Numbered from the stretch's first letter, positions 6,999 to 20,539 are shown. The stretch: 32,000 bases of DNA from Candidatus Kuenenia stuttgartensis (GCF_900232105.1 NZ_LT934425.1:3300001-3332000); one strand, 5' to 3'. Notes: generated from the letters alone by a model not told the origin. A program made the numbers and translations.

Positions 6999-9012
6999 TC
7001 TAGCGTGAGTTTATCACAAAATAAGGCATGAAGCAACGTAACATAAATACAGTCAATGCGTTAAGCACAACATCAATTGTATACACTGAGTCCTTGAAGT
7101 TTCAGCCGATGTTTGTGGAAATCCATAATGCCTAACGCATTCATCAACAGAGATTCCTTGTCGGACATTTCTTCCAATTTGTAGGTAGCCTTAACTCTCC
7201 CTCTGGCCTTTGTTTCTTCAAGCATAGCAGAAAGCCTTATATTATTAAGGGTGTCTAACAGGGTATCTAACGTTCCACTAAATTGTGCGTGCGCTTTTGC
7301 CTGATACCACACAATCGCCGCCATTAGGTATCCGAGGACGCAAATAAAAAAATGCACCCTGATTTTCTGATCCGTCCAGTGAAATTGCGGTTTTAAAGCA
7401 AGGTGATAGGGGTTCTTGAGATTTCTAAAGGCATGTTCAATTTTTGATTGCCCATAGTAGGCTTTTATAATGTCCGCGGTATCCCAATCGTGATGGTCTG
7501 TCATAAGAATCCTGAACCCCAGTTCCCCTTCTATTTCTTCGAGCTTTTTCTGGTCGATTGAAAAATTCAATTGAAACTTGCCTTCAGATACCTCTTTTAA
7601 CGACCAATCGATAACATCCTTCGCAAATTGACATTTCACTACACTTCTTATCGTATCCTCCAGACCCTCTTTGTCCCGCATCTTTCCCTTTGGATTACAC
7701 AGATGCTGCTGTAAGAGCTTTAACTGATGTTCTGCCTTTTCCAGAGACTGAGACATTCCCCTTAATTGCCCAACCTTTAATTTCTCGGAAATAAATACGA
7801 CAACGGTTCTTTCCTGCCCCCAAATAACCCGTTTGTCATGGTACACCTGTATCTTACTGCCGTCAACGTCATATTCCCTGAAATTACACATGGCATCCCC
7901 TACCAACTGCTTGTGATGATACGGTGTAAGCGCTCCAACGTAATGCAATGCCAATCTCTCTACAATAGCCATATTGTCCATGGAATTGTTTCCACGATCA
8001 AAAACAATAGTGTGCTTTTTGCTGTCGAAACCTAATCCGGTCATCCTGTCTTTTATCGTCTCAAGAACCGCGCTGAACACCTTTGCATCCGCCATGTTCC
8101 CCTGATAGGTATGGTGAAACAACGGTATCATGTCGTTACGTGTAACGACCATCGCCAACCCGACCTGCCTGAGATCGTATCGCTTTTGTTTGTTTTTCCC
8201 CCGCCGGGCAATAGTGCATCGCAGATTAGTTGTGTCGATATACGTGAAAAAATTGGTTGTATCAAAAAACAGTGTGTCGCTTTGAAGGTTGTATGTTTTA
8301 AATGTCTTTTCAATTAATTCGCGCTCGATTTCTGCAATGGATTCTTCAGGAAGTGCATCCATCAAATCCCAGAAATGCTGACTGTCTATTTTACTCAAGC
8401 TGTGTCTGAGTAAGTATTCGGCAGTAGTCGTCTTTGCCCAATCCCACCATCCTCTTTTGCTGGTAGGCACACACACTCTCCCCACGGCACCCAACAAGAG
8501 GGTACTTCCGGCGGTCAGATTATTTCGAACAGGTTTTTTAGCACAATACTGCCGTGGCGACTTTATATATTTATTAATCACGGAAGGGACGTCCAGGGCA
8601 TTGGCCACACTTAGCAATGCGGCTACCGCGCCATGTGAATAAGATTTGAGCCGTAATTTTTCGGTAAGACCTTGCAGTTGTTTTAATAAATCGTCTGCCT
8701 TGCCAAGATAGGCCAGGACGATGGGCCTGGGCTTGCCGTTAACGCGCCGCGATTCGACAATATACCAATATTTATAACCTCTGGAGTTTTTAGATTGAAT
8801 GGTAGCCATGGCTATTAGTTGTTAGTGTATACGTAATAGATTAATACTCCGTGTATAATAGTATATACAGGCATATAATGCAATATAAATATAGTATTAT
8901 TCAGTGTATACATAATTTTTTAGACAAAAAAAGTCGCAACCCGATACAAATCATTGGATTGCAACTTGATGTCTTTGTCTTACACCTTATTTCGTGATAA
9001 ACTCACGCTAGA
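6999..9012 (-). mobile_element. IS1634-family (IS4-like) insertion sequence
   Basis: 28-bp terminal inverted repeats: tctagcgtgagtttatcacaaaataagg (6999-7026) against the reverse complement of 8985-9012, 27/28 identical. They enclose a single 578-aa transposase gene. Element length is 2014 bp. Confidence 0.85.
7073..8809 (-). CDS. IS1634-family transposase
   Basis: N-terminus MATIQSKNSRGYKYWYIVESRRVNGKPRPIVLAYLGK is the typical IS1634-group opening. DDE_Tnp_1-like core (FFDTTNF..., VFDRGNNS...), 578 aa. Confidence 0.85.
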   Translation of the reverse strand: MATIQSKNSRGYKYWYIVESRRVNGKPRPIVLAYLGKADDLLKQLQGLTEKLRLKSYSHGAVAALLSVANALDVPSVINKYIKSPRQYCAKKPVRNNLTAGSTLLLGAVGRVCVPTSKRGWWDWAKTTTAEYLLRHSLSKIDSQHFWDLMDALPEESIAEIERELIEKTFKTYNLQSDTLFFDTTNFFTYIDTTNLRCTIARRGKNKQKRYDLRQVGLAMVVTRNDMIPLFHHTYQGNMADAKVFSAVLETIKDRMTGLGFDSKKHTIVFDRGNNSMDNMAIVERLALHYVGALTPYHHKQLVGDAMCNFREYDVDGSKIQVYHDKRVIWGQERTVVVFISEKLKVGQLRGMSQSLEKAEHQLKLLQQHLCNPKGKMRDKEGLEDTIRSVVKCQFAKDVIDWSLKEVSEGKFQLNFSIDQKKLEEIEGELGFRILMTDHHDWDTADIIKAYYGQSKIEHAFRNLKNPYHLALKPQFHWTDQKIRVHFFICVLGYLMAAIVWYQAKAHAQFSGTLDTLLDTLNNIRLSAMLEETKARGRVKATYKLEEMSDKESLLMNALGIMDFHKHRLKLQGLSVYN

Positions 9013-9026
9013 GTATTAAATTCTGC

Positions 9027-10064
9027 ATGAATCCATTTCTCAGTGAAAAAACCCGAATAGAATTTAAAAAAGCACATAAGAAAGAGCCTCATAGACGTCA
9101 TGCCGACCGAATCAAAGCTATACTTCTTCTTGATTCAGGATGGAGTTATGAAGAAGTAGCAGAAGCGCTCTTGTTAGACGATCAAACAATCAGGAATTAC
9201 GAAAAACTATACAAAGATAAAGGTTTCGACGGGCTTTTATCTGACAATTATGTTGGCTGTATGCCAAAACTCACTTGCGAACAAGAAGAACAATTAAAAG
9301 ATCATATCAGGAAAAACAACTATAGCGCGGCAAAAGAAATTGTTGAATATGTAAAACAGACATTCAATAAAATCTATACACCCGAAGGAATGGTACATAC
9401 CCTCGATAGATTAGGCTTTACTTACAAGAAAACTACAATAGTTCCAGGCAAAGCAAACCCTGAAAAACAAAAAGAATTTATCGAAAACTACAAACAACTC
9501 AAAGAAGAGAAAGCCCCTGGAGATAAGATACTTTTTATGGATGGAGTTCATCCACAGCACAATTCTACGTCTGCATATTGCTGGATAGAGAAAGGCAAAA
9601 AGAAGGAAATACCCTCTAATACCGGCAGGAAAAGAATAAATTTAAACGGGGCTATTGACATAGAAACCTTTGAAGTAACAATCCGGGAAGATGAAAGCAT
9701 CAATGCTCAATCAACAATAAAGCTTTTCCATGAAATAGAGTCAAGGTATGCTCAAGCCGGTACTATTTACATAATCTCTGATAATGCTAAATATTACAGG
9801 TCTAAGTTGGTCAAAGAATACCTTGCAAATTCGAGAATAAAGATCAAATTTCTCCCTTCCTATTCACCCAATTTAAATCTCATTGAAAGATTATGGAAAT
9901 TCTTTCGCAAAAAAATATTGTATAACAAGTATTATGATACTTATGAGAAGTTTAAAAACAAATGTTTAAGTTTTTTCAAAAATATTAACGAGTATACAGA
10001 TGAATTGTCTACTCTTTTAACTGAAAATTTTCAAATTATTGGCGAGCAAATTTCGAAAATCTGA
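9027..10064 (+). CDS. IS630-family (Tc1/mariner-like) transposase
   Basis: N-terminal HTH region, then FMDGVHPQHN, IISDNAKYYRS and LPSYSPNLNLIERLWKFFRKK. D to E spacing is 35 residues, as counted from the translation. Confidence 0.9.
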   Translation: MNPFLSEKTRIEFKKAHKKEPHRRHADRIKAILLLDSGWSYEEVAEALLLDDQTIRNYEKLYKDKGFDGLLSDNYVGCMPKLTCEQEEQLKDHIRKNNYSAAKEIVEYVKQTFNKIYTPEGMVHTLDRLGFTYKKTTIVPGKANPEKQKEFIENYKQLKEEKAPGDKILFMDGVHPQHNSTSAYCWIEKGKKKEIPSNTGRKRINLNGAIDIETFEVTIREDESINAQSTIKLFHEIESRYAQAGTIYIISDNAKYYRSKLVKEYLANSRIKIKFLPSYSPNLNLIERLWKFFRKKILYNKYYDTYEKFKNKCLSFFKNINEYTDELSTLLTENFQIIGEQISKI

Positions 10065-13060: not shown

Positions 13061-13342
13061 GTGATTTTTATTTTTAAACCTTATGTTTGCCCATGAATAA
13101 CCCTGTTAATTGTGCCCAAAAAACACTCATCTTTGAAGAATATTGGTTCTTTAGCCAGTTGATAAAGCGCCACTAAGTTTTTGATGTTTTTAAAAAGCCT
13201 TACGTAATTAACAGCTGCATTGATTCAAGAATTAGTAGCAAATATTATTTGTTATGTAGGTTAGTGAATTATAGGTTGTGGTATTATTTTTGACTAGGTG
13301 CTTATAATTGGTAATTTTTATAGTACGTCTGGACTTTTTGTA

Positions 13343-13861
13343 ATGGAAGGGGAAAAAGCGTTGCGAAGTAAAATTCTGTTGATGTGCATATTCTCGATTG
13401 CTATCTTCAGTTTATCGGAAGACCGTTTTTGCTTGTGTGCTGAAGAAAATACTCAGGTTGAGGGTGAAAAAGAAGAGAAGAGCGAATTGGCCAAACTTAT
13501 GAAAGAAATAGATAAGAACTATAAGGCAACAGAAGAAATCTCTGGTTATTATAACTATAAAGAGAAAGAATGGAAAATTATAGGAGATGCGAGTGTTAAC
13601 CTCATAAATCTCTGCAAAATTGCTTTAAAAAAATTCGCGCGTCCAGATGATGAAAAATATCAGAAACTTAATAGAATGATGCTGGAAGAATCTGAGAAAA
13701 TGCATGAAGTATACGAACGCAGAGAGCAGGTTGGCGCATTAGAAGATGCCCAATGGCAGGTGCGCCGTTTGAGGCAAACATGCGCGTTATGCCACAAACA
13801 TTTAGGTATTCATCTCTACCCCAATTTATATCCTGGGCATAAAGATTGGGGAGTAAAATGA
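13343..13861 (+). CDS. Secreted/membrane-anchored monoheme cytochrome c with C-terminal CXXCH (class II, four-helix-bundle type)
   Basis: Hydrophobic N-terminus LRSKILLMCIFSIAIFSLS. Single heme motif CALCH close to the C-terminus (RQTCALCHKHLG), as in cytochrome c'/c556-type proteins. The ORF track starts at GTG 13298, and I prefer the in-frame ATG at 13343. Neither has a clear SD. Confidence 0.65.
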   Translation: MEGEKALRSKILLMCIFSIAIFSLSEDRFCLCAEENTQVEGEKEEKSELAKLMKEIDKNYKATEEISGYYNYKEKEWKIIGDASVNLINLCKIALKKFARPDDEKYQKLNRMMLEESEKMHEVYERREQVGALEDAQWQVRRLRQTCALCHKHLGIHLYPNLYPGHKDWGVK

Positions 13862-14773: not shown

Positions 14774-15181
14774 ATGAAGCTAAAAAAAGGCATTTTAGCT
14801 GGGATTTGTGCGATGGTTATTTCTGGGATGGCATCGATTGGATATGGCGCAACACAACAAGAGATATGTAAGAATATGTGGGATCCTTTTCAATCAATGA
14901 GGGCTGTGACTGGATTAATGGAACTTACATCGGGTCAGTGTACACAATTATCAAAGGATGCGGCGGCTATTTTGGCAGGTGTAAAAGAATCACATGACAG
15001 TATTTCAGTAGATAAAAATTATAAGGTTTTGAATGATGAGGTTGCTTATCATGCTGCGAACATTGATGCTGCGGCAAAAGCGAATGATTTAGAGGAAGTT
15101 CAGGTGCAATTCAGGAGAATGACCATTGCATGCAGGAATTGTCATAAGATTTACAAGACAGAGCAAAGACTCGTTCCGTAA
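14774..15181 (+). CDS. Secreted monoheme cytochrome c with C-terminal CXXCH (class II, four-helix-bundle type)
   Basis: Signal peptide MKLKKGILAGICAMVISGMASIGYGA. Single CRNCH motif 14 residues from the C-terminus. Strong SD AGTGAGGAGGGA upstream. Confidence 0.8.
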   Translation: MKLKKGILAGICAMVISGMASIGYGATQQEICKNMWDPFQSMRAVTGLMELTSGQCTQLSKDAAAILAGVKESHDSISVDKNYKVLNDEVAYHAANIDAAAKANDLEEVQVQFRRMTIACRNCHKIYKTEQRLVP

Positions 15182-15226: not shown

Positions 15227-15607
15227 ATGAAGTTGTTTCGTTTAAAATATGTATTACCACTTATTGCAGGGTTGGGTTTGTCTTTGACAAGCACAGCTTG
15301 GGCTTTGAATGAACACACCGCAGGTGATACAACAAAGAGTCCATATACTATATATGCGGGTCTTGGTTTTGCTGTACAAGAAAGTTGTTATTATTGCCAT
15401 GGAAATGGCGGGAAAGGAACTACCGAAGGACTTATTTTTGGAGTTCCTGATTTCACTAGCACAGAATTTCAATCATCAATGACAGATAAACAGATCATAG
15501 ATCATATTAATAAGGGAAAGGGTAAGTGTCCTTCTTACCAAGGAAAGATGTCTCCTGAAATGATTGAGAAAATGGCTGGTGTTGTGAGAAATTTTGCTGT
15601 AAAGTAA
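15227..15607 (+). CDS. Secreted class I monoheme cytochrome c
   Basis: Signal peptide ending TSTAWA. N-proximal CYYCHGNGGKG heme motif and a distal Met-rich segment KMSPEMIEKM. The 12-nt SD AGTGAGGAGGGA is identical to that of the preceding gene. Confidence 0.85.
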   Translation: MKLFRLKYVLPLIAGLGLSLTSTAWALNEHTAGDTTKSPYTIYAGLGFAVQESCYYCHGNGGKGTTEGLIFGVPDFTSTEFQSSMTDKQIIDHINKGKGKCPSYQGKMSPEMIEKMAGVVRNFAVK

Positions 15608-15659
15608 ATTCTCGCTATCGGGTTAATAGTAAACAAACCTTAGAGATGCAAAAATCAAA

Positions 15660-15702
15660 GGGTATATGAACAGCACAGTACGTTCATATGCCCTTTTTAT
15701 TT
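15660..15702 (+). terminator. Rho-independent terminator after the cytochrome genes
   Basis: gggtatatgaac (15660-15671) pairs with gttcatatgccc (15682-15693): 11 Watson-Crick pairs plus one G-U. It is followed by tttttattt. Confidence 0.75.
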
Positions 15703-15833
15703 CAAATATGGTAATGTACCTTTTTTAATAGCCGGTGTTTTGATTATATTAATCGATGTCTCATCGCGACAATAAACATTGTGCCATTCCAAGTTTTAAA
15801 ACTTCTTTCTAAAGATTTATCAAACTTCTTCCC

Positions 15834-18353
15834 ATGGAAACAAACTTAATTACTACTGAAAATTATTTTTACACCTTATTAAAAAAAAATTATCATACTT
15901 CGGAAAAAATACGTGCGCAAATTAGAGAAACGAAGGAAAAAGTTAGAAATATTGTACAAAGAGAGCCGTTAAAAGGGTTTACTATTAACTTTCAAGGAGA
16001 AGTCATTGGATGTTCTTTTGAAAAAACACTGAAAATAATTGCCAAACGCTTATTTAGCAAAGGAGTCGTTAATCATATTTTAACATTAAGGGATAAAAAT
16101 TCGGTAGAAGTAGATGCTACAGCAACACAAACTGAAGTGGAAGAACTCATTCGCTTTCTCATGAAACGTCATGTTGTCTTGCATTATAAGAAAAAAACGT
16201 CAAAAGATATCAGTAATATGTTGATAATCGATGAGAATGAACAAAATCAATTAGGAAGTTTTATTCCTGATTCACTTTGCTGTAATTATGCATCTTTTGT
16301 TGAATCTACTGAAAAATACACCGGAAGGCTGAATAGTTATCTTATTCTTAATAGTTTGCCCTTAACAACAGAAAAACTCGGTCGGGAGCTTCGTTTTAAC
16401 AAAATTGAAACAAAAAATAAAGTTTTCACGGGTACCGGTTTAAAAGAAATTTACTTAAATTTAAATTTTTTAAACCTTATCCTCATGTTGGATTTAGAAG
16501 AACACTATTTGAAACTTAGAATTTTTAGCGCACAGGAAGAATACCTGAAATCTGTCGAGGAAAAAATTGACAGTCTTGGTTTTTTTGCAGATATTTTTCA
16601 ATATATTGCAAGTGAAGATAATCCATTATTGTTCAACAAAAATTTGTTCATCGATTTAATGAGGATTGAACATATTATTGAAAAAGAAGATTGGAAATCA
16701 CTCCCTGCATATGGAGGTTATATTTACTCAGCATTAAATAAACTTAACGAACATTTCAAAATCATGGAGGAATATAATCTTTTTTTAACTTACGCCAACT
16801 GTATTGAGAAATTTTTGGCAAAATTAGACAAGAAGCTTTTCAAACAGAAATCAGACTTTAAAAATGAAAAAAATGATTTAAATGCAAACTACAATGAATT
16901 AAAAAAGCTACATATTTTATCCCGGCACCCCTCAATAAAGCATACCTATCTGGAGCTATTGAATTCTTTTAGTAAATTATTGACATACATTGATTTTATG
17001 TCCATGCAAAACAAATATTATGGCAAAGAAAATACGAGGCAAAAAGCGCTTTCCCTAAAAAGACAGGGAAATAGATTTATTTCAGGCATAAAAAAGTTTG
17101 TAACATCTGTTCTTGATCATTCGACCACTAATTCTATAAATTCCTTGCTTTCTAAAAAGGAAGTTTTTGTGAATGAACAAGAGGTAGATGTCCATAAGCT
17201 CATAGAAAAACTGAAAAAAAAGCTGAAAGAAATATCCCAATTAAAAACTGCTTCTGGAAGGGATGCTTATATGGAAGCCAGGACATGCATACCATTGCTC
17301 ACCTATTTGTCTGATATTTTAGATCAACTAAATGAGATAGTTAAAAAAGATGAATTGGGCAAGAATACTCAGGATTTATATAAAAATGTTTTTCTTAAAT
17401 CGAAATTGAATAAGTTCACTACGCTATTTAATGAATTGGACCGCTTAGTTACATTTGACGATGAAGATGAAAAGGAATTTGTCCGTAAAATATCGGCCGA
17501 TTTACAAAAATTCCTTTATAGTAAACCTTTAAAAGAAGACAATTATACAAAAATTATAGATAAAATTAGCGCTTTGGAGGATTTTGTAATAAATAAAAAC
17601 AAACCACATCTCGAAAGTGTTGATAAAATACATACCTTCACTCAAAAATTTAATCAGAATAACGTTTTTAAAAATATAATTGATATAAAAACGGAAATTG
17701 AAAAGATGCTTGAGCTAGAGAGGAAGTTCTTGCAAATTGAAACCTTTAAAAAGGAGGGTGATTTTTTTTCTTATAGCAGCAAAGAACTTGACTGTTTTCT
17801 TGAAGAAATAATAATATTTAATAAAAAATTGAAAGCAAACGGCTATTGGAACAACAAATCAAATTTTGAAGAAATCGAAAAAAAATTTGATCAATTGATT
17901 GCAGAGGTAAATGATATTGAAAACCGCATTGTTTCAAGCGCAAGGAATGAAAACAATAAAATATCTAAAGAAACCATAAAATACGTTGATTATTTAAAAA
18001 ATTCCATAGTGACAAGGAAGGGTTTGGAAGGTGCAGTTATTCTTATACAAAACCAAATTAGTCAAATAGCAGGATTTATTCATGCAATTAAAGCTTCTCT
18101 CTGCCAACAATCATTTGTCCACTCCGGAGTCTCAACCAGCGTGCTTTTTGATCAAATAACCTTTTTACTTAGTAGTATTGATGTAAAATTGCTGGATATG
18201 GACAAATTAACGGAAGACATGTTCATTGACTGTATTAGTACGATATCTCACTATCAAGTAGGAGAAACGTTTCAAGAGCCGCAAAATGACGATATTAATC
18301 GCTTAATGCTGGAAATTAGAAAAAGGGAAATAATCAAAACATATAAAAATTAG
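15834..18353 (+). CDS. Large hypothetical protein, K/N/E/L-rich, predicted mostly alpha-helical, no recognisable domain
   Basis: Uninterrupted 839-codon ORF in a very AT-rich stretch where random ORFs of this length are implausible. No signal peptide, Walker A or other motif recognised. Confidence 0.7.
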   Translation: METNLITTENYFYTLLKKNYHTSEKIRAQIRETKEKVRNIVQREPLKGFTINFQGEVIGCSFEKTLKIIAKRLFSKGVVNHILTLRDKNSVEVDATATQTEVEELIRFLMKRHVVLHYKKKTSKDISNMLIIDENEQNQLGSFIPDSLCCNYASFVESTEKYTGRLNSYLILNSLPLTTEKLGRELRFNKIETKNKVFTGTGLKEIYLNLNFLNLILMLDLEEHYLKLRIFSAQEEYLKSVEEKIDSLGFFADIFQYIASEDNPLLFNKNLFIDLMRIEHIIEKEDWKSLPAYGGYIYSALNKLNEHFKIMEEYNLFLTYANCIEKFLAKLDKKLFKQKSDFKNEKNDLNANYNELKKLHILSRHPSIKHTYLELLNSFSKLLTYIDFMSMQNKYYGKENTRQKALSLKRQGNRFISGIKKFVTSVLDHSTTNSINSLLSKKEVFVNEQEVDVHKLIEKLKKKLKEISQLKTASGRDAYMEARTCIPLLTYLSDILDQLNEIVKKDELGKNTQDLYKNVFLKSKLNKFTTLFNELDRLVTFDDEDEKEFVRKISADLQKFLYSKPLKEDNYTKIIDKISALEDFVINKNKPHLESVDKIHTFTQKFNQNNVFKNIIDIKTEIEKMLELERKFLQIETFKKEGDFFSYSSKELDCFLEEIIIFNKKLKANGYWNNKSNFEEIEKKFDQLIAEVNDIENRIVSSARNENNKISKETIKYVDYLKNSIVTRKGLEGAVILIQNQISQIAGFIHAIKASLCQQSFVHSGVSTSVLFDQITFLLSSIDVKLLDMDKLTEDMFIDCISTISHYQVGETFQEPQNDDINRLMLEIRKREIIKTYKN

Positions 18354-18470
18354 CGTAAACTGGTACAAATTTTACTTCCATTAATCCCGCACTATAGTGT
18401 GAGTGATATCAGTTATAAAATACATTTGTTTTCGCCCTGACTTTCAATATACGATGAAACACAAATGAAT

Positions 18471-18504
18471 GGATTTTCTAAAAAACTAAAGTGTTACAAA
18501 ATCT
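18471..18504 (+). repeat. Copy of the recurrent intergenic motif
   Basis: ggattttctaaaaaactaaagtgttacaaaatct. It aligns with ggatttttgaaaaactaaaatattaccgtaattt at 20815-20848 and with the minus strand of 4870-4906. Confidence 0.55.
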
Positions 18505-18672
18505 GCATATTTTTAGCCGGACAATAACAATTAATCATGACAACCATTTCTCATAAAAAGGACAAAAATTGGGACTAATCTGCAAAGTCATATACCGCTA
18601 TCGTCAACTCTGTAAAAAATATTATTTTTGTATGGTCTCTTCGTGCCCTTTGAGATATTTTAAAAATATCCT

Positions 18673-19209
18673 ATGAATTTAAGTTACAAAGAACTTCCAT
18701 TAATAGATTTATTTGCTCAAAAGGTTGCAAGCACTCGAGAGAGAAAAAATACCGATAAAACACCCCATGATTATGCACTGGACAAGGTAGATGCAATGTC
18801 GGTTCTACATTGTGCAAATTTGCTCAATGACCAATACCTGAAAAATGCAATTCAAGCTTCAGAAAAGCATATGATCAAAACTCAGCCTCAACACAATAAT
18901 ATTCCGCAAAATACAATATCCATTAACACAAATAATAATCGACCAACCAGCAGAAAAATACCACACTATACCCATCTTATTGAATTGAATGGCCATTTGA
19001 TTTTTCAAGCAGCATGTTGCCTTCCGTTAAAAATATTTGCGGCAAGTCTTGACGGTAAAACCGTCTCTGGCAAGACCTTGTTTAATAGTCACTCAGATTC
19101 TGGCGGAGGAAAGTTGGTATATGAATTTTTGGGAACAGGAAAAGAATTAATAGTTGATTTAAAACGCAGGGAAAGCACCAACGTACAACGTCTGATTTTT
19201 CAAATATAA
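18673..19209 (+). CDS. Hypothetical protein (178 aa)
   Basis: ORF followed 4 nt later by a strong terminator. It has an N/Q/T-rich central linker. No recognisable motif. Confidence 0.5.
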   Translation: MNLSYKELPLIDLFAQKVASTRERKNTDKTPHDYALDKVDAMSVLHCANLLNDQYLKNAIQASEKHMIKTQPQHNNIPQNTISINTNNNRPTSRKIPHYTHLIELNGHLIFQAACCLPLKIFAASLDGKTVSGKTLFNSHSDSGGGKLVYEFLGTGKELIVDLKRRESTNVQRLIFQI

Positions 19210-19212
19210 AGA

Positions 19213-19248
19213 AAAAAATCCCTGAGTAATTCAACTCAGGGATTTTTT
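19213..19248. terminator. Bidirectional rho-independent terminator
   Basis: Core stem tccctgag (19219-19226) / ctcaggga (19235-19242), flanked by an A-run on the 5' side and a T-run on the 3' side. It lies between convergent genes ending at 19209 and 19278. Confidence 0.8.
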
Positions 19249-19277
19249 CTTTAGTAAAAATAGGGATTTTTGAAATA

Positions 19278-19739
19278 TTAAATCCATTCCTCGGATAAAA
19301 CGCCACCTTCAATACCTACGACAACCTGCTTAACCGGTATTTTACGAGTTGCCCTTTCTGCACCCTCTTTTGCTACCTGAACTAACCCAAAACAACACGG
19401 TACCTGCATGATCATTACAGTCAAAGTATTAATCTTTGCGTTATCAATTAAAGACTTTACTTTTTCTATATAGACCTCTTGATCCGAATCCAGTTTAGGG
19501 CAAGCAATAGCAATGCTTTTGCCTTTCAGATAATCCTTATGAAAATCAGCTAATGCAAAAGGAACACAGTCAGCGACCAACAAAATATCTTTTTCCTGAA
19601 AATAAGGCGCTTGTGGCGAAACTAGGTGCAACTGTATCGGCCACTGCCTTAACTGAGACTGGCGCTTGCCTGATTCACCCTCGCTCTGTTCTTCCTTTTC
19701 ACTAAAATCTATCGTTTTTGATCCTGGACAACCACTCAT
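19278..19739 (-). CDS. Cysteine-containing putative redox protein (resembles the C-terminal module of ferredoxin-fused Fe-S proteins)
   Basis: LRQWPIQLHLVSPQAPYF...LLVADCVPFA...IACPKLD...MQVPCCFGL matches a family I recall as annotated 4Fe-4S-binding/ferredoxin-domain proteins, but here without the ferredoxin domain. Its ATG overlaps the upstream stop (ATGA). Confidence 0.55.
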   Translation of the reverse strand: MSGCPGSKTIDFSEKEEQSEGESGKRQSQLRQWPIQLHLVSPQAPYFQEKDILLVADCVPFALADFHKDYLKGKSIAIACPKLDSDQEVYIEKVKSLIDNAKINTLTVMIMQVPCCFGLVQVAKEGAERATRKIPVKQVVVGIEGGVLSEEWI

Positions 19740-20539
19740 TTTACAACCTCCCTTAAAAATTTCTCTTCCAATTCAATAATAAAATTCTCGTACTTTCTTG
19801 GCAATTCATCCCCAACAGAAGCATCCGCATCATTACACCTTTGAAACATTTCACCTACCTGTGCGTCAGATAATTGACGATCAATCCAAGGATAAAGGAT
19901 TTCATCTTCTTTTTTGATATGTTGTGTAAGCAAATCCATGTATCCAAAAAGGTGTTCTTTTATCGCAGCTTTGTCACCACTTTTCACCCCCTCTACTACT
20001 TGCCGGATATGGTTTCTTCCTGTATCGTGATCTTTATACATAATTTGTATAACTTCAGCATTTTCATCAACGTATTTAAATAAAATATCCTCTTCCTTCA
20101 TATGATGATATTTGTCTGCATAATTACGTATAAAATCAACGCAACTTAACACAAGGTCTTTATCAAGTTCCATGCTGCTTTCAATATATTCAACAATGGA
20201 AGGTATGAGAGCCAAAAGTCGTTTAATAAGAACATGTTCATCCACAAGTTTTTTCACCGAAGGAGAATAGGTAATTTTCCTAGGAGCAGCCATCTTTGTC
20301 AAATCCACCTTTGGCTCAGGTACCTCCCTGTCCGGATAAATAGCCTTTTCTATCCTATACATCAACGTCGCTTCTTGCAGAGGATCAAGATTGTGAATTC
20401 CAACTATATCCTTCATTAAGCAGCTTCCAACAGAACATGGTGCACACCCTATGCCATATTCCTCAAGAATTTTGCCTACTTCCGGATAAGTATCAATAAT
20501 CCCCTTTATCTCTTTATTTAAGATATTTTCCAAAAACAC
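19736..20539 (-). CDS. RIC/ScdA-like di-iron protein (DUF1858 domain + hemerythrin-like domain)
   Basis: N-terminal DUF1858-type segment IIDTYPEVGKILEEYGIGCAPCSVGSC. Hemerythrin-type His/Glu motifs YHHMKEEDILF, HDTGRNH and HIKKEDEILYPW. GTG at 20539 immediately follows AAGGAGG, so the TTG at 20533 may be the true start. Confidence 0.7.
   Translation of the reverse strand: MFLENILNKEIKGIIDTYPEVGKILEEYGIGCAPCSVGSCLMKDIVGIHNLDPLQEATLMYRIEKAIYPDREVPEPKVDLTKMAAPRKITYSPSVKKLVDEHVLIKRLLALIPSIVEYIESSMELDKDLVLSCVDFIRNYADKYHHMKEEDILFKYVDENAEVIQIMYKDHDTGRNHIRQVVEGVKSGDKAAIKEHLFGYMDLLTQHIKKEDEILYPWIDRQLSDAQVGEMFQRCNDADASVGDELPRKYENFIIELEEKFLREVVK

Follow-up and report, generated by a model that had tools for sequence, protein, structure and literature searches.

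Two undescribed protein families restricted to anammox bacteria and lacking characterised relatives

A 32,000-nucleotide stretch of the Candidatus Kuenenia stuttgartiensis genome (NZ_LT934425.1:3300001-3332000, hereafter the window) contains two neighbouring open reading frames (ORFs) that encode proteins of 839 and 178 amino acids, referred to here as the large and the small protein. Comparative analysis established that they represent undescribed, clade-restricted and selectively maintained protein families without characterised relatives, and excluded the possibility that they form a recent foreign cassette. Both ORFs lie exactly where a prediction made from the DNA alone had placed them, 319 bp apart. 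Tentatively, and at somewhat less than an even chance, we read the large protein as a scaffold or adaptor of low abundance in the cytoplasm (riboplasm) and the small one as its β-sandwich partner, both acting in a process specific to anaerobic ammonium-oxidizing (anammox) bacteria.

Distribution and selection

Both ORF translations are exact matches to database proteins, copies of which occur in more than 200 Candidatus Kuenenia stuttgartiensis contigs. The pair had been called an orphan, a label that does not survive database comparison: the large protein has 99 homologue clusters and the small protein 149, those of the large one being nearly all full-length and 46-93% identical to it. The informative source names of these homologues are all anammox taxa (Kuenenia, Brocadia, Jettenia, Loosdrechtia, Wunengus, Scalindua and Brocadiaceae), apart from two odd labels: a partial large-protein record filed under ‘Nomurabacteria’ and a 7-kb contig with the large gene filed as Thermodesulfobacteriota, both of which are probably mis-binned. 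A scan of GTDB with one genome per species returned 49 loci, all from anammox lineages including Loosdrechtia and Scalinduaceae, bar one label. Identity of the large protein is 73-93% within Kuenenia, 50-57% in Jettenia, Brocadia and Loosdrechtia, and 46-52% in Scalindua, and the gene is apparently single-copy in anammox genomes.

A hidden Markov model search of 1.84 billion representatives clustered at 50% identity recovered one full-length cluster, its fragments, and two distant matches confined to the N-terminal domain (residues ~23-160). These two (P0262 and P0263) are complete standalone proteins of 203 and 210 amino acids from outside the anammox bacteria, encoded at L010 7001-7612, in a metagenome-assembled genome of Margulisbacteria, and at L061 5285-5917. 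One of the two standalone genes overlaps a gene of the inositol-monophosphatase family; a comparison of their two neighbourhoods found no neighbour in common. Across both anammox genes, measured against three Kuenenia relatives, the ratio of non-synonymous to synonymous substitution (dN/dS) is 0.12-0.29 (0.15-0.27 for the small gene), showing that both are real genes under purifying selection. The co-distribution of the large and small genes across the clade is solid. Judged from the homologues recovered, the pair shows a pattern of vertical descent restricted to anammox bacteria: all anammox genera sampled have it, and next to nothing outside them does.

The view that the locus is a compositional outlier proved half right. 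Among the 30 ORFs of the window that were compared, the large gene does have the lowest guanine-plus-cytosine (GC) content, 30.0%, whereas 28 other ORFs have 40.7 +/- 4.1% (z -2.6). It is no outlier in third-position GC (z -1.4), and the small gene is no outlier either (z -1.2). The deviation of the large gene lies in codon positions 1 and 2: glycine, alanine, arginine and proline make up 10.5% of the large protein versus 21% elsewhere (z -3.4), and phenylalanine, tyrosine, methionine, isoleucine, asparagine and lysine are enriched, together reaching 40%. Orthologues in Brocadia, Jettenia and Scalindua likewise have a GC content 5-8 points under that of their own flanks, with the same amino-acid bias. 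The AT-richness of the large gene is a property of the protein family and gives no sign of foreign origin, because it is due mainly to amino-acid content and recurs in the orthologues.

These observations bear directly on an alternative in which the pair arrived by horizontal transfer, as an autonomous cassette of defence genes, toxins or mobile-element cargo, and lodged between housekeeping operons. The low GC, the terminators on both sides and two transposase genes ~6-9 kb upstream would fit such an origin. However, the pair occurs in all anammox genera sampled with an identity that tracks taxonomy, the low GC is common to the orthologues, both genes are under purifying selection, and synteny with a downstream hemerythrin pair is kept across Brocadiaceae. 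Neither protein matches any defence model in PADLOC, and the large protein, the only one of the two run in tblastn, matched none of 72,556 plasmid and 50,697 phage records. The horizontal-cassette explanation is effectively refuted and we consider it extremely improbable, and with it falls the earlier suggestion of a compositionally foreign insert.

Architecture of the large protein

No significant domain was found in either protein with Pfam, NCBIfam or PADLOC, as had been predicted, and Pfam gave nothing significant on any member of either alignment. Sequence-profile searches against the PDB gave nothing significant for either protein (a match to IglA at E 0.028 was rejected as spurious), and Foldseek comparison of both structural models with the PDB and BFVD yielded no match at E <= 0.001. 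Thus, the remote-homology check by sequence and fold, which might have placed the proteins in a characterised family, produced no confident match. Public names of the 839-residue family are inconsistent, ranging over ‘small soluble cyt c’, ‘acylphosphatase’ and ‘indolepyruvate ferredoxin oxidoreductase alpha and beta subunits’ (P0220, P0221, P0002, P0066 and P0084), and are evidently wrong.

N-terminal head: The AlphaFold2 model of the large protein, built from 64 sequences, is confident, with a predicted local distance difference test (pLDDT) score of 80 and a predicted template-modelling (pTM) score of 0.67. It begins with a basic helix (N-terminal pI 9.5), which leads into an α/β module and a β-rich extension that reaches approximately residue 200. 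Scalindua proteins (e.g. P0061, P0069 and P0084) carry an extra basic, low-complexity (K-A/K-T)n tail at the N-terminus, missing from the Brocadiaceae versions. In the core of the module, DSSP assigns strands and helices in the order E47-56, H62-73, E78-85, E90-97, H99-109 and E113-117, so that the model has the β-α-β-β-α-β ferredoxin-like fold of acylphosphatases. The Pfam Acylphosphatase profile (PF00708), which is the best Pfam match of the head and the only sequence lead to recur, scores 14.5 bits against the full-length protein and 19.2 bits against residues 1-200, below its gathering threshold of 22.5 bits, and matches at E <= 1 in only 3 of 43 orthologues. The top three PDB-sequence matches of the head are all acylphosphatases, at E ~1.

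When the head is aligned with E. coli acylphosphatase (2gv1), the invariant E63, within an invariant ‘SFEKT’, falls at the position of the catalytic arginine, where acylphosphatases have ‘xFR’; the phosphate-loop signature G-x-V-Q-G-V-x-F-R with its arginine is lacking in the large protein. The anammox proteins vary in the column of the catalytic asparagine after helix 1 (V-x-N-x-x-x-G-x-V-E). In P0262 and P0263, the standalone relatives, the arginine is retained (‘FRGT’) and an asparagine lies nearby. Because the catalytic arginine is replaced by an invariant glutamate and the asparagine is not conserved, the head of the large protein is read as a putative acylphosphatase-like pseudo-enzyme domain, and the protein as not being an acylphosphatase.

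The head nevertheless belongs to a protein with many charged and polar residues that are invariant across orthologues at 46-93% identity: H113/H117, E63-K64-T65, E185/R187/N189/T193/N195, S764/D773/S780/D783 and E811. A second explanation holds that the large protein is an enzyme of a new type or a small-molecule-sensing regulator, whose catalytic or ligand site would be built from the conserved polar clusters while the helical part transmits or regulates. Candidate sites would be the ferredoxin-like head with its histidine pair and E-K-T, the loop GRELRFNxIETKN and, towards the C-terminus, SGVxTSxLFDQ. The H113-x3-H117 pair, conserved throughout, is kept even in the two distant standalone relatives, the best Foldseek matches of the head are ACT/ferredoxin-like folds, specifically the ACT regulatory domains of aspartokinase, and a low abundance would suit a regulator. 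Against this, Pfam, NCBIfam and the PDB give no catalytic or sensor family, the acylphosphatase catalytic dyad is lost, no recognisable DNA-binding or output domain is present, and the ACT matches are weak (E ~0.3, probability <=0.69, template-modelling (TM) score 0.25-0.30). We regard an enzyme or sensor as somewhat unlikely.

Helical region: The remainder of the model is all-helical. At the junction between the β region and the first long helix lies a strongly conserved stretch with invariant columns P176, L177, G183, E185, R187, N189, I191, T193, N195, L203, K204 and E205. Apart from two ~50-residue helices, most helices are 15-35 residues long with short loops, which suggests that they would pack into bundles and not into a long coiled coil. 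A basic, indel-rich linker, the least conserved part of the protein, divides it into two halves. The most conserved segment lies near the C-terminus (mean column identity 0.90) and is also the most hydrophobic, with a Kyte-Doolittle 19-residue window of 1.2-1.3, under the transmembrane threshold. Profile and fold searches detected no relatives of the helical region outside anammox bacteria. Internal repeats were considered and rejected, since hhalign comparison of nine segments gave probabilities of less than 12% throughout.

The predicted lack of a signal peptide and Walker A motif in the large protein is borne out, and extends to CxxC, lipobox and membrane helix; the Walker A pattern searched was [AG]xxxxGK[ST]. 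Neither protein has a hydrophobic N-terminus, lipobox, signal peptide or membrane helix, the maximum Kyte-Doolittle 19-residue window being 1.31 for the large protein and 1.53 for the small one.

The helices raise a third explanation, in which the large protein would be a long-helix protein that associates with the nucleoid or with nucleic acids, resembling SMC, Rad50 or MukB without the ATPase head. JetC, Rad50, MukB and viral SMC-like proteins are indeed the top whole-chain Foldseek matches, and the basic N-terminus and linker, together with the lysine-rich tail of Scalindua orthologues, would be compatible with nucleic-acid binding. Yet these matches have probabilities of 0.04-0.13 (<=0.13 for all SMC-type matches) and TM-scores <0.1, there is no Walker A or B motif and no hinge, and the short helices point to bundles. 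The SMC/Rad50-type matches reflect generic long-helix similarity, and a nucleoid role is very unlikely.

Architecture of the small protein

The small protein is modelled with higher confidence (pLDDT 85, pTM 0.81). In the model, a conserved N-terminal segment and two helices are followed by a disordered linker and a seven-strand β-sandwich (residues 99-177). The asparagine-, glutamine- and threonine-rich linker had been recognised from the sequence and is indeed variable. Invariant residues include H98, Y99, F111, Q112, C115, C116, L117, L119, G145-G146-K147-L148, Y150, D162, R165 and Q172-R173. A possible Walker A motif (‘AASLDGKT’, residues 123-130) was rejected: the pattern is confined to Kuenenia, its lysine and threonine are not conserved, and it falls on a predicted β-strand. 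Foldseek returned as best matches MHC, β-2-microglobulin and the NEAT domains of IsdB/IsdH, all at E >= 0.067 and query TM-score (TMq) <= 0.36; the IsdB/IsdH NEAT matches (E 0.075-0.2, TM 0.23-0.30) are no better than those to β-2-microglobulin.

Gene order across anammox genomes

In ~26 of the 49 species-level loci (Kuenenia, Jettenia, Brocadia, Loosdrechtia and related genomes), the large gene is followed by the small gene and then by convergent genes for an AF_0155-like protein and a hemerythrin-domain protein. The pair thus co-occurs in other genomes, as a check on the prediction required, and is adjacent in about half of them. In most linked genomes other than those of K. stuttgartiensis and the one nearest to it, the gap between the large and small genes is 42-190 bp, and in Brocadia the two overlap by one base. 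Linkage is lost in some Brocadiaceae; in one such genome (L008), the small gene still lies beside the hemerythrin pair while the large gene has relocated. Physical linkage of the large and small genes is a Brocadiaceae trait.

A side observation concerns seven Brocadia-like loci (L019 12621-13190 and L021 12625-13155, also L020, L027, L033, L046 and L051), in which a gene for a BON-domain lipoprotein, with a signal peptide and an LGC lipobox, lies 3' of the large gene. The small gene is present in three of the seven, and there the BON gene sits between the large and small genes and overlaps the start of the latter.

Gene order also supplies the evidence on a fourth explanation, in which the small and large proteins are functionally unrelated and the small Cys-Cys protein acts with the AF_0155-like and hemerythrin (RIC-like) proteins in the handling of metal or redox centres. 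Within Brocadiaceae the small gene keeps its place beside the AF_0155-like/hemerythrin pair, even in cases such as L008 in which the large gene lies elsewhere, the small and AF_0155-like proteins both carry a hydrophobic-Q-x-x-C-C strand motif, and the AF_0155-like protein is abundant. However, the small and AF_0155-like genes are convergent and hence not co-transcribed, the small gene of Scalindua has neither an AF_0155-like nor a hemerythrin gene within 8 kb, and the one-base overlap in Brocadia suggests translational coupling of large and small genes. The shared motif is not significant; only its 16 columns align, with an hhalign probability of 5%, and homology between the small and AF_0155-like proteins was rejected. 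Functional independence of the two proteins is accordingly judged unlikely.

Genomic locus and transcription units

The features of the locus are collected in Table 1. Directly upstream of the pair lie NaxL and NaxS, which form a nitric-oxide-binding cytochrome c heterodimer and carry the tags kusta0087/0088, KSMBR1_3082/3083 and KsCSTR_40390/40380; the kusta0087 sequence printed in supplementary material of PMC2881027 agrees fully with the corresponding ORF. Because NaxL/NaxS are kusta0087/0088, the large gene is assigned by locus-tag numbering to kusta0089, KSMBR1_3084 and KsCSTR_40370. The mapping of the small gene to KsCSTR_40360 was confirmed explicitly, and the AF_0155-like gene is kusta0091/KsCSTR_40350 by numbering. 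No mention of the locus tags or accessions of either gene of the pair was found in the searchable literature. NaxLS lies upstream of the pair only in Kuenenia, and a functional link between them was rejected since the adjacency is confined to that genus.

Table 1. Coordinates of features in the window, counted from its first nucleotide
Feature	Position	Strand	Description
Large gene	15834..18353	+	839 amino acids, 98 kDa, pI 8.5, soluble; UniProt Q1Q7P2 / A0A2C9CIL8
N-terminal α/β module	15900..16313	+	Residues ~23-160; predicted acylphosphatase-like core 47-117, then β extension
Conserved stretch	16353..16448	+	Residues 174-205, GLPLTxEKxGRELRFNxIETKNxVFTxTGLKE; junction of β region and first long helix
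All-helical region	16431..18350	+	Residues 200-839, ~20 predicted helices, two of ~50 residues (200-247, 287-336)
Variable linker	17013..17171	+	Residues 394-446; basic, pI 10.5; pLDDT <50, predicted disordered
Most conserved segment	18111..18185	+	Residues 760-784, SFVHSGV[AS]TSxLFDQITYLLSNxDV
Spacer	18354..18672	+	319 bp between large and small genes; not conserved
Small gene	18673..19209	+	178 amino acids; kusta0090 / KSMBR1_3085 / KsCSTR_40360; UniProt Q1Q7P1
N/Q/T-rich linker	18892..18945	+	Small protein residues 74-91; pLDDT <50, columns poorly conserved
Vicinal cysteines C115-C116	19015..19020	+	Invariant; within the invariant β-sandwich strand motif FQxACCLPLK
Hairpin and T-run	15657..15702	+	15-bp stem, 10-nt loop; intrinsic terminator of the NaxL/NaxS operon (best reading); 5' boundary of the block
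Bidirectional intrinsic terminator	19207..19253	both	16-pair stem; common to the small gene (+) and the AF_0155-like gene (-)
NaxL and NaxS	14774-15181, 15227-15607		Cytochrome c heterodimer
AF_0155-like gene	19278-19739	-	153 amino acids; convergent
Hemerythrin-domain (RIC-like) gene	19736-20539		Beside the AF_0155-like gene
187-amino-acid ORF	13298-13861	+	Upstream of NaxLS
Probable insertion sequence	6999-9012		28-nt inverted repeats at 6999-7026 and 8985-9012
DDE_Tnp_1 transposase gene	7073-8809	-	578 amino acids
DDE_3 transposase gene	9027-10064		IS630-like

The pair had been described as an autonomous, terminator-insulated unit. The two bracketing hairpins are real: the upstream one (15657-15696) has a folding energy of -20.2 kcal/mol (z -6.7), which none of 200 shuffles equalled, and the downstream one of -24.7 and -25.1 kcal/mol on its two strands (z -8.0 and -7.8, with no shuffle as stable). 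To call the unit autonomous is to overstate the case: the upstream hairpin is most readily interpreted as terminating the NaxLS operon, which is highly expressed, the downstream one is shared with the convergent gene, and the large and small genes lie apart in Scalindua and some of the Brocadiaceae. NaxLS transcripts reach ~8,000-10,000 reads per kilobase per million (RPKM) in the supplements of PMC7438415. No plain intrinsic terminator was found 3' of the large gene, where a hairpin directly beyond the stop codon (z -2.1) lacks a T-run.

A recurrent intergenic motif had been proposed to lie between the two genes; no spacer word of 13 nucleotides or longer recurs in the window, and the six 12-mers that are shared appear to recur by chance. 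The idea that the spacer holds a structured RNA or a conserved element was rejected, given a fold z of +0.93 and no conservation of the sequence in K. hertensis, where the spacer measures 67 bp. An Rfam scan of the whole window, spacer included, gave nothing significant. K. stuttgartiensis and its nearest relative (~390 bp; L012 12518-12907) are alone in having an expanded spacer; the extra DNA in K. stuttgartiensis has no ORF, repeat, Rfam match or significant fold, and a remnant of the BON-lipoprotein gene was looked for in the Kuenenia spacer and none was found.

Further upstream, the 187-amino-acid ORF carries a CxxCH haem motif (CALCHKH) at its end, is matched by neither Pfam nor NCBIfam and, among the loci examined, lies upstream of NaxLS only in four Kuenenia-type loci; it may be a third small cytochrome of the NaxLS cluster. 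The inverted repeats flanking the DDE_Tnp_1 gene are 96% complementary and delimit a probable insertion sequence, directly followed by the IS630-like gene.

Proposed role and abundance

Expression: Table S7 of PMC7709395 reports on strain CSTR1, in whose shotgun proteome 1,189 proteins were detected and ~1,170 quantified. The expectation that the pair is expressed is borne out for the small protein, which ranks 625th at 0.01% of the proteome, beside SigA, LeuA and NadK, but not for the large protein, as discussed below. The AF_0155-like protein, annotated as hypothetical, ranks 23rd at 0.65% (PMC7709395). In the accessible part of the supplementary text of PMC2881027, kusta0087/0088 are among the organelle-associated proteins and kusta0089 and kusta0090 are not listed.

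Scaffold and partner: In the tentative scaffold-adaptor reading, the acylphosphatase-like head of the large protein would be a pseudo-enzyme serving as a ligand- or partner-binding module; no catalysis is proposed because the large protein has no catalytic motif and the catalytic arginine and asparagine are lost. The ~640 residues of helical bundles, split by the flexible basic linker, would form a platform, and the 178-residue protein, an Ig-like β-sandwich with an invariant Cys-Cys/His-Tyr surface, would be a binding partner or cargo-recognition subunit recruited by head and platform. The pair would then serve a process found only in anammox bacteria, such as organelle or membrane organisation or the assembly of an anammox-specific complex. 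We infer a physical interaction of the two proteins, a non-enzymatic role and a link to anammox-specific cell biology.

Several observations weigh against this reading. Every Scalindua locus, and those of several groundwater lineages, has the large gene by itself, with the small gene at another site. The invariant polar residues of the large protein could make up an active site of an unrecognised kind. Finally, the large protein appears to have gone undetected in the CSTR1 proteome, because KsCSTR_40370 is missing from the ranked rows of Table S7 (PMC7709395), all of which stand ahead of the ‘n.d.’ rows; its non-detection fits a low copy number. A bolder version of the scaffold reading, in which the pair is anammox-only machinery, either a scaffold on the riboplasm side by which the ladderane-bounded anammoxosome is shaped, tethered or partitioned, or a factor in organelle-complex assembly, with the large protein representing a new fold family, is in our estimate improbable.

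Significance: Much of the global loss of fixed nitrogen is due to anammox bacteria, and almost no protein components are known for the biogenesis, shaping and inheritance of their unique organelle. The pair belongs on a short candidate list for anammox-specific cell biology and could serve as a phylogenetic or diagnostic marker of the clade; the public annotation of the large protein is corrected by the present analysis. Should the pair turn out to be merely a lineage-specific housekeeping adaptor, its value would be modest.

Comparison with known systems

The anammox-specific protein kustd1438 is about four times longer than the 839-residue protein and, to our knowledge, has no canonical relatives. 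Like this cell-division-ring protein (as cited in PMC7709395), the large K. stuttgartiensis protein is undetected in the accessible rows of the CSTR1 shotgun proteome (PMC7709395). The protein kustd1438 is not among the large-protein homologues, and no sequence relationship was seen between them. With SMC, Rad50, MukB and JetC, the large protein shares long helices, but it differs from these ATPases in having no ATPase head, and its model shows bundles in place of a single long antiparallel coiled coil.

The resemblance to acylphosphatase (PF00708; also the N-terminal domain of HypF) is more specific. Residues ~47-117 of the large protein have the same predicted order of secondary structure, and the G-x-V-x-x-x-x-F portion of the phosphate-loop signature aligns. 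In contrast to both acylphosphatase and HypF, the head is fused to ~680 further residues that are unrelated to either architecture. The small protein, in turn, resembles Ig-like sandwiches, both the haem-binding NEAT domains and the β-2-microglobulin-like C1 type, in the predicted seven strands of its C-terminal half; the likeness is one of generic fold only, and the invariant Cys-Cys, His98-Tyr99 and GGKLVY motifs of the small protein may be features of its own.

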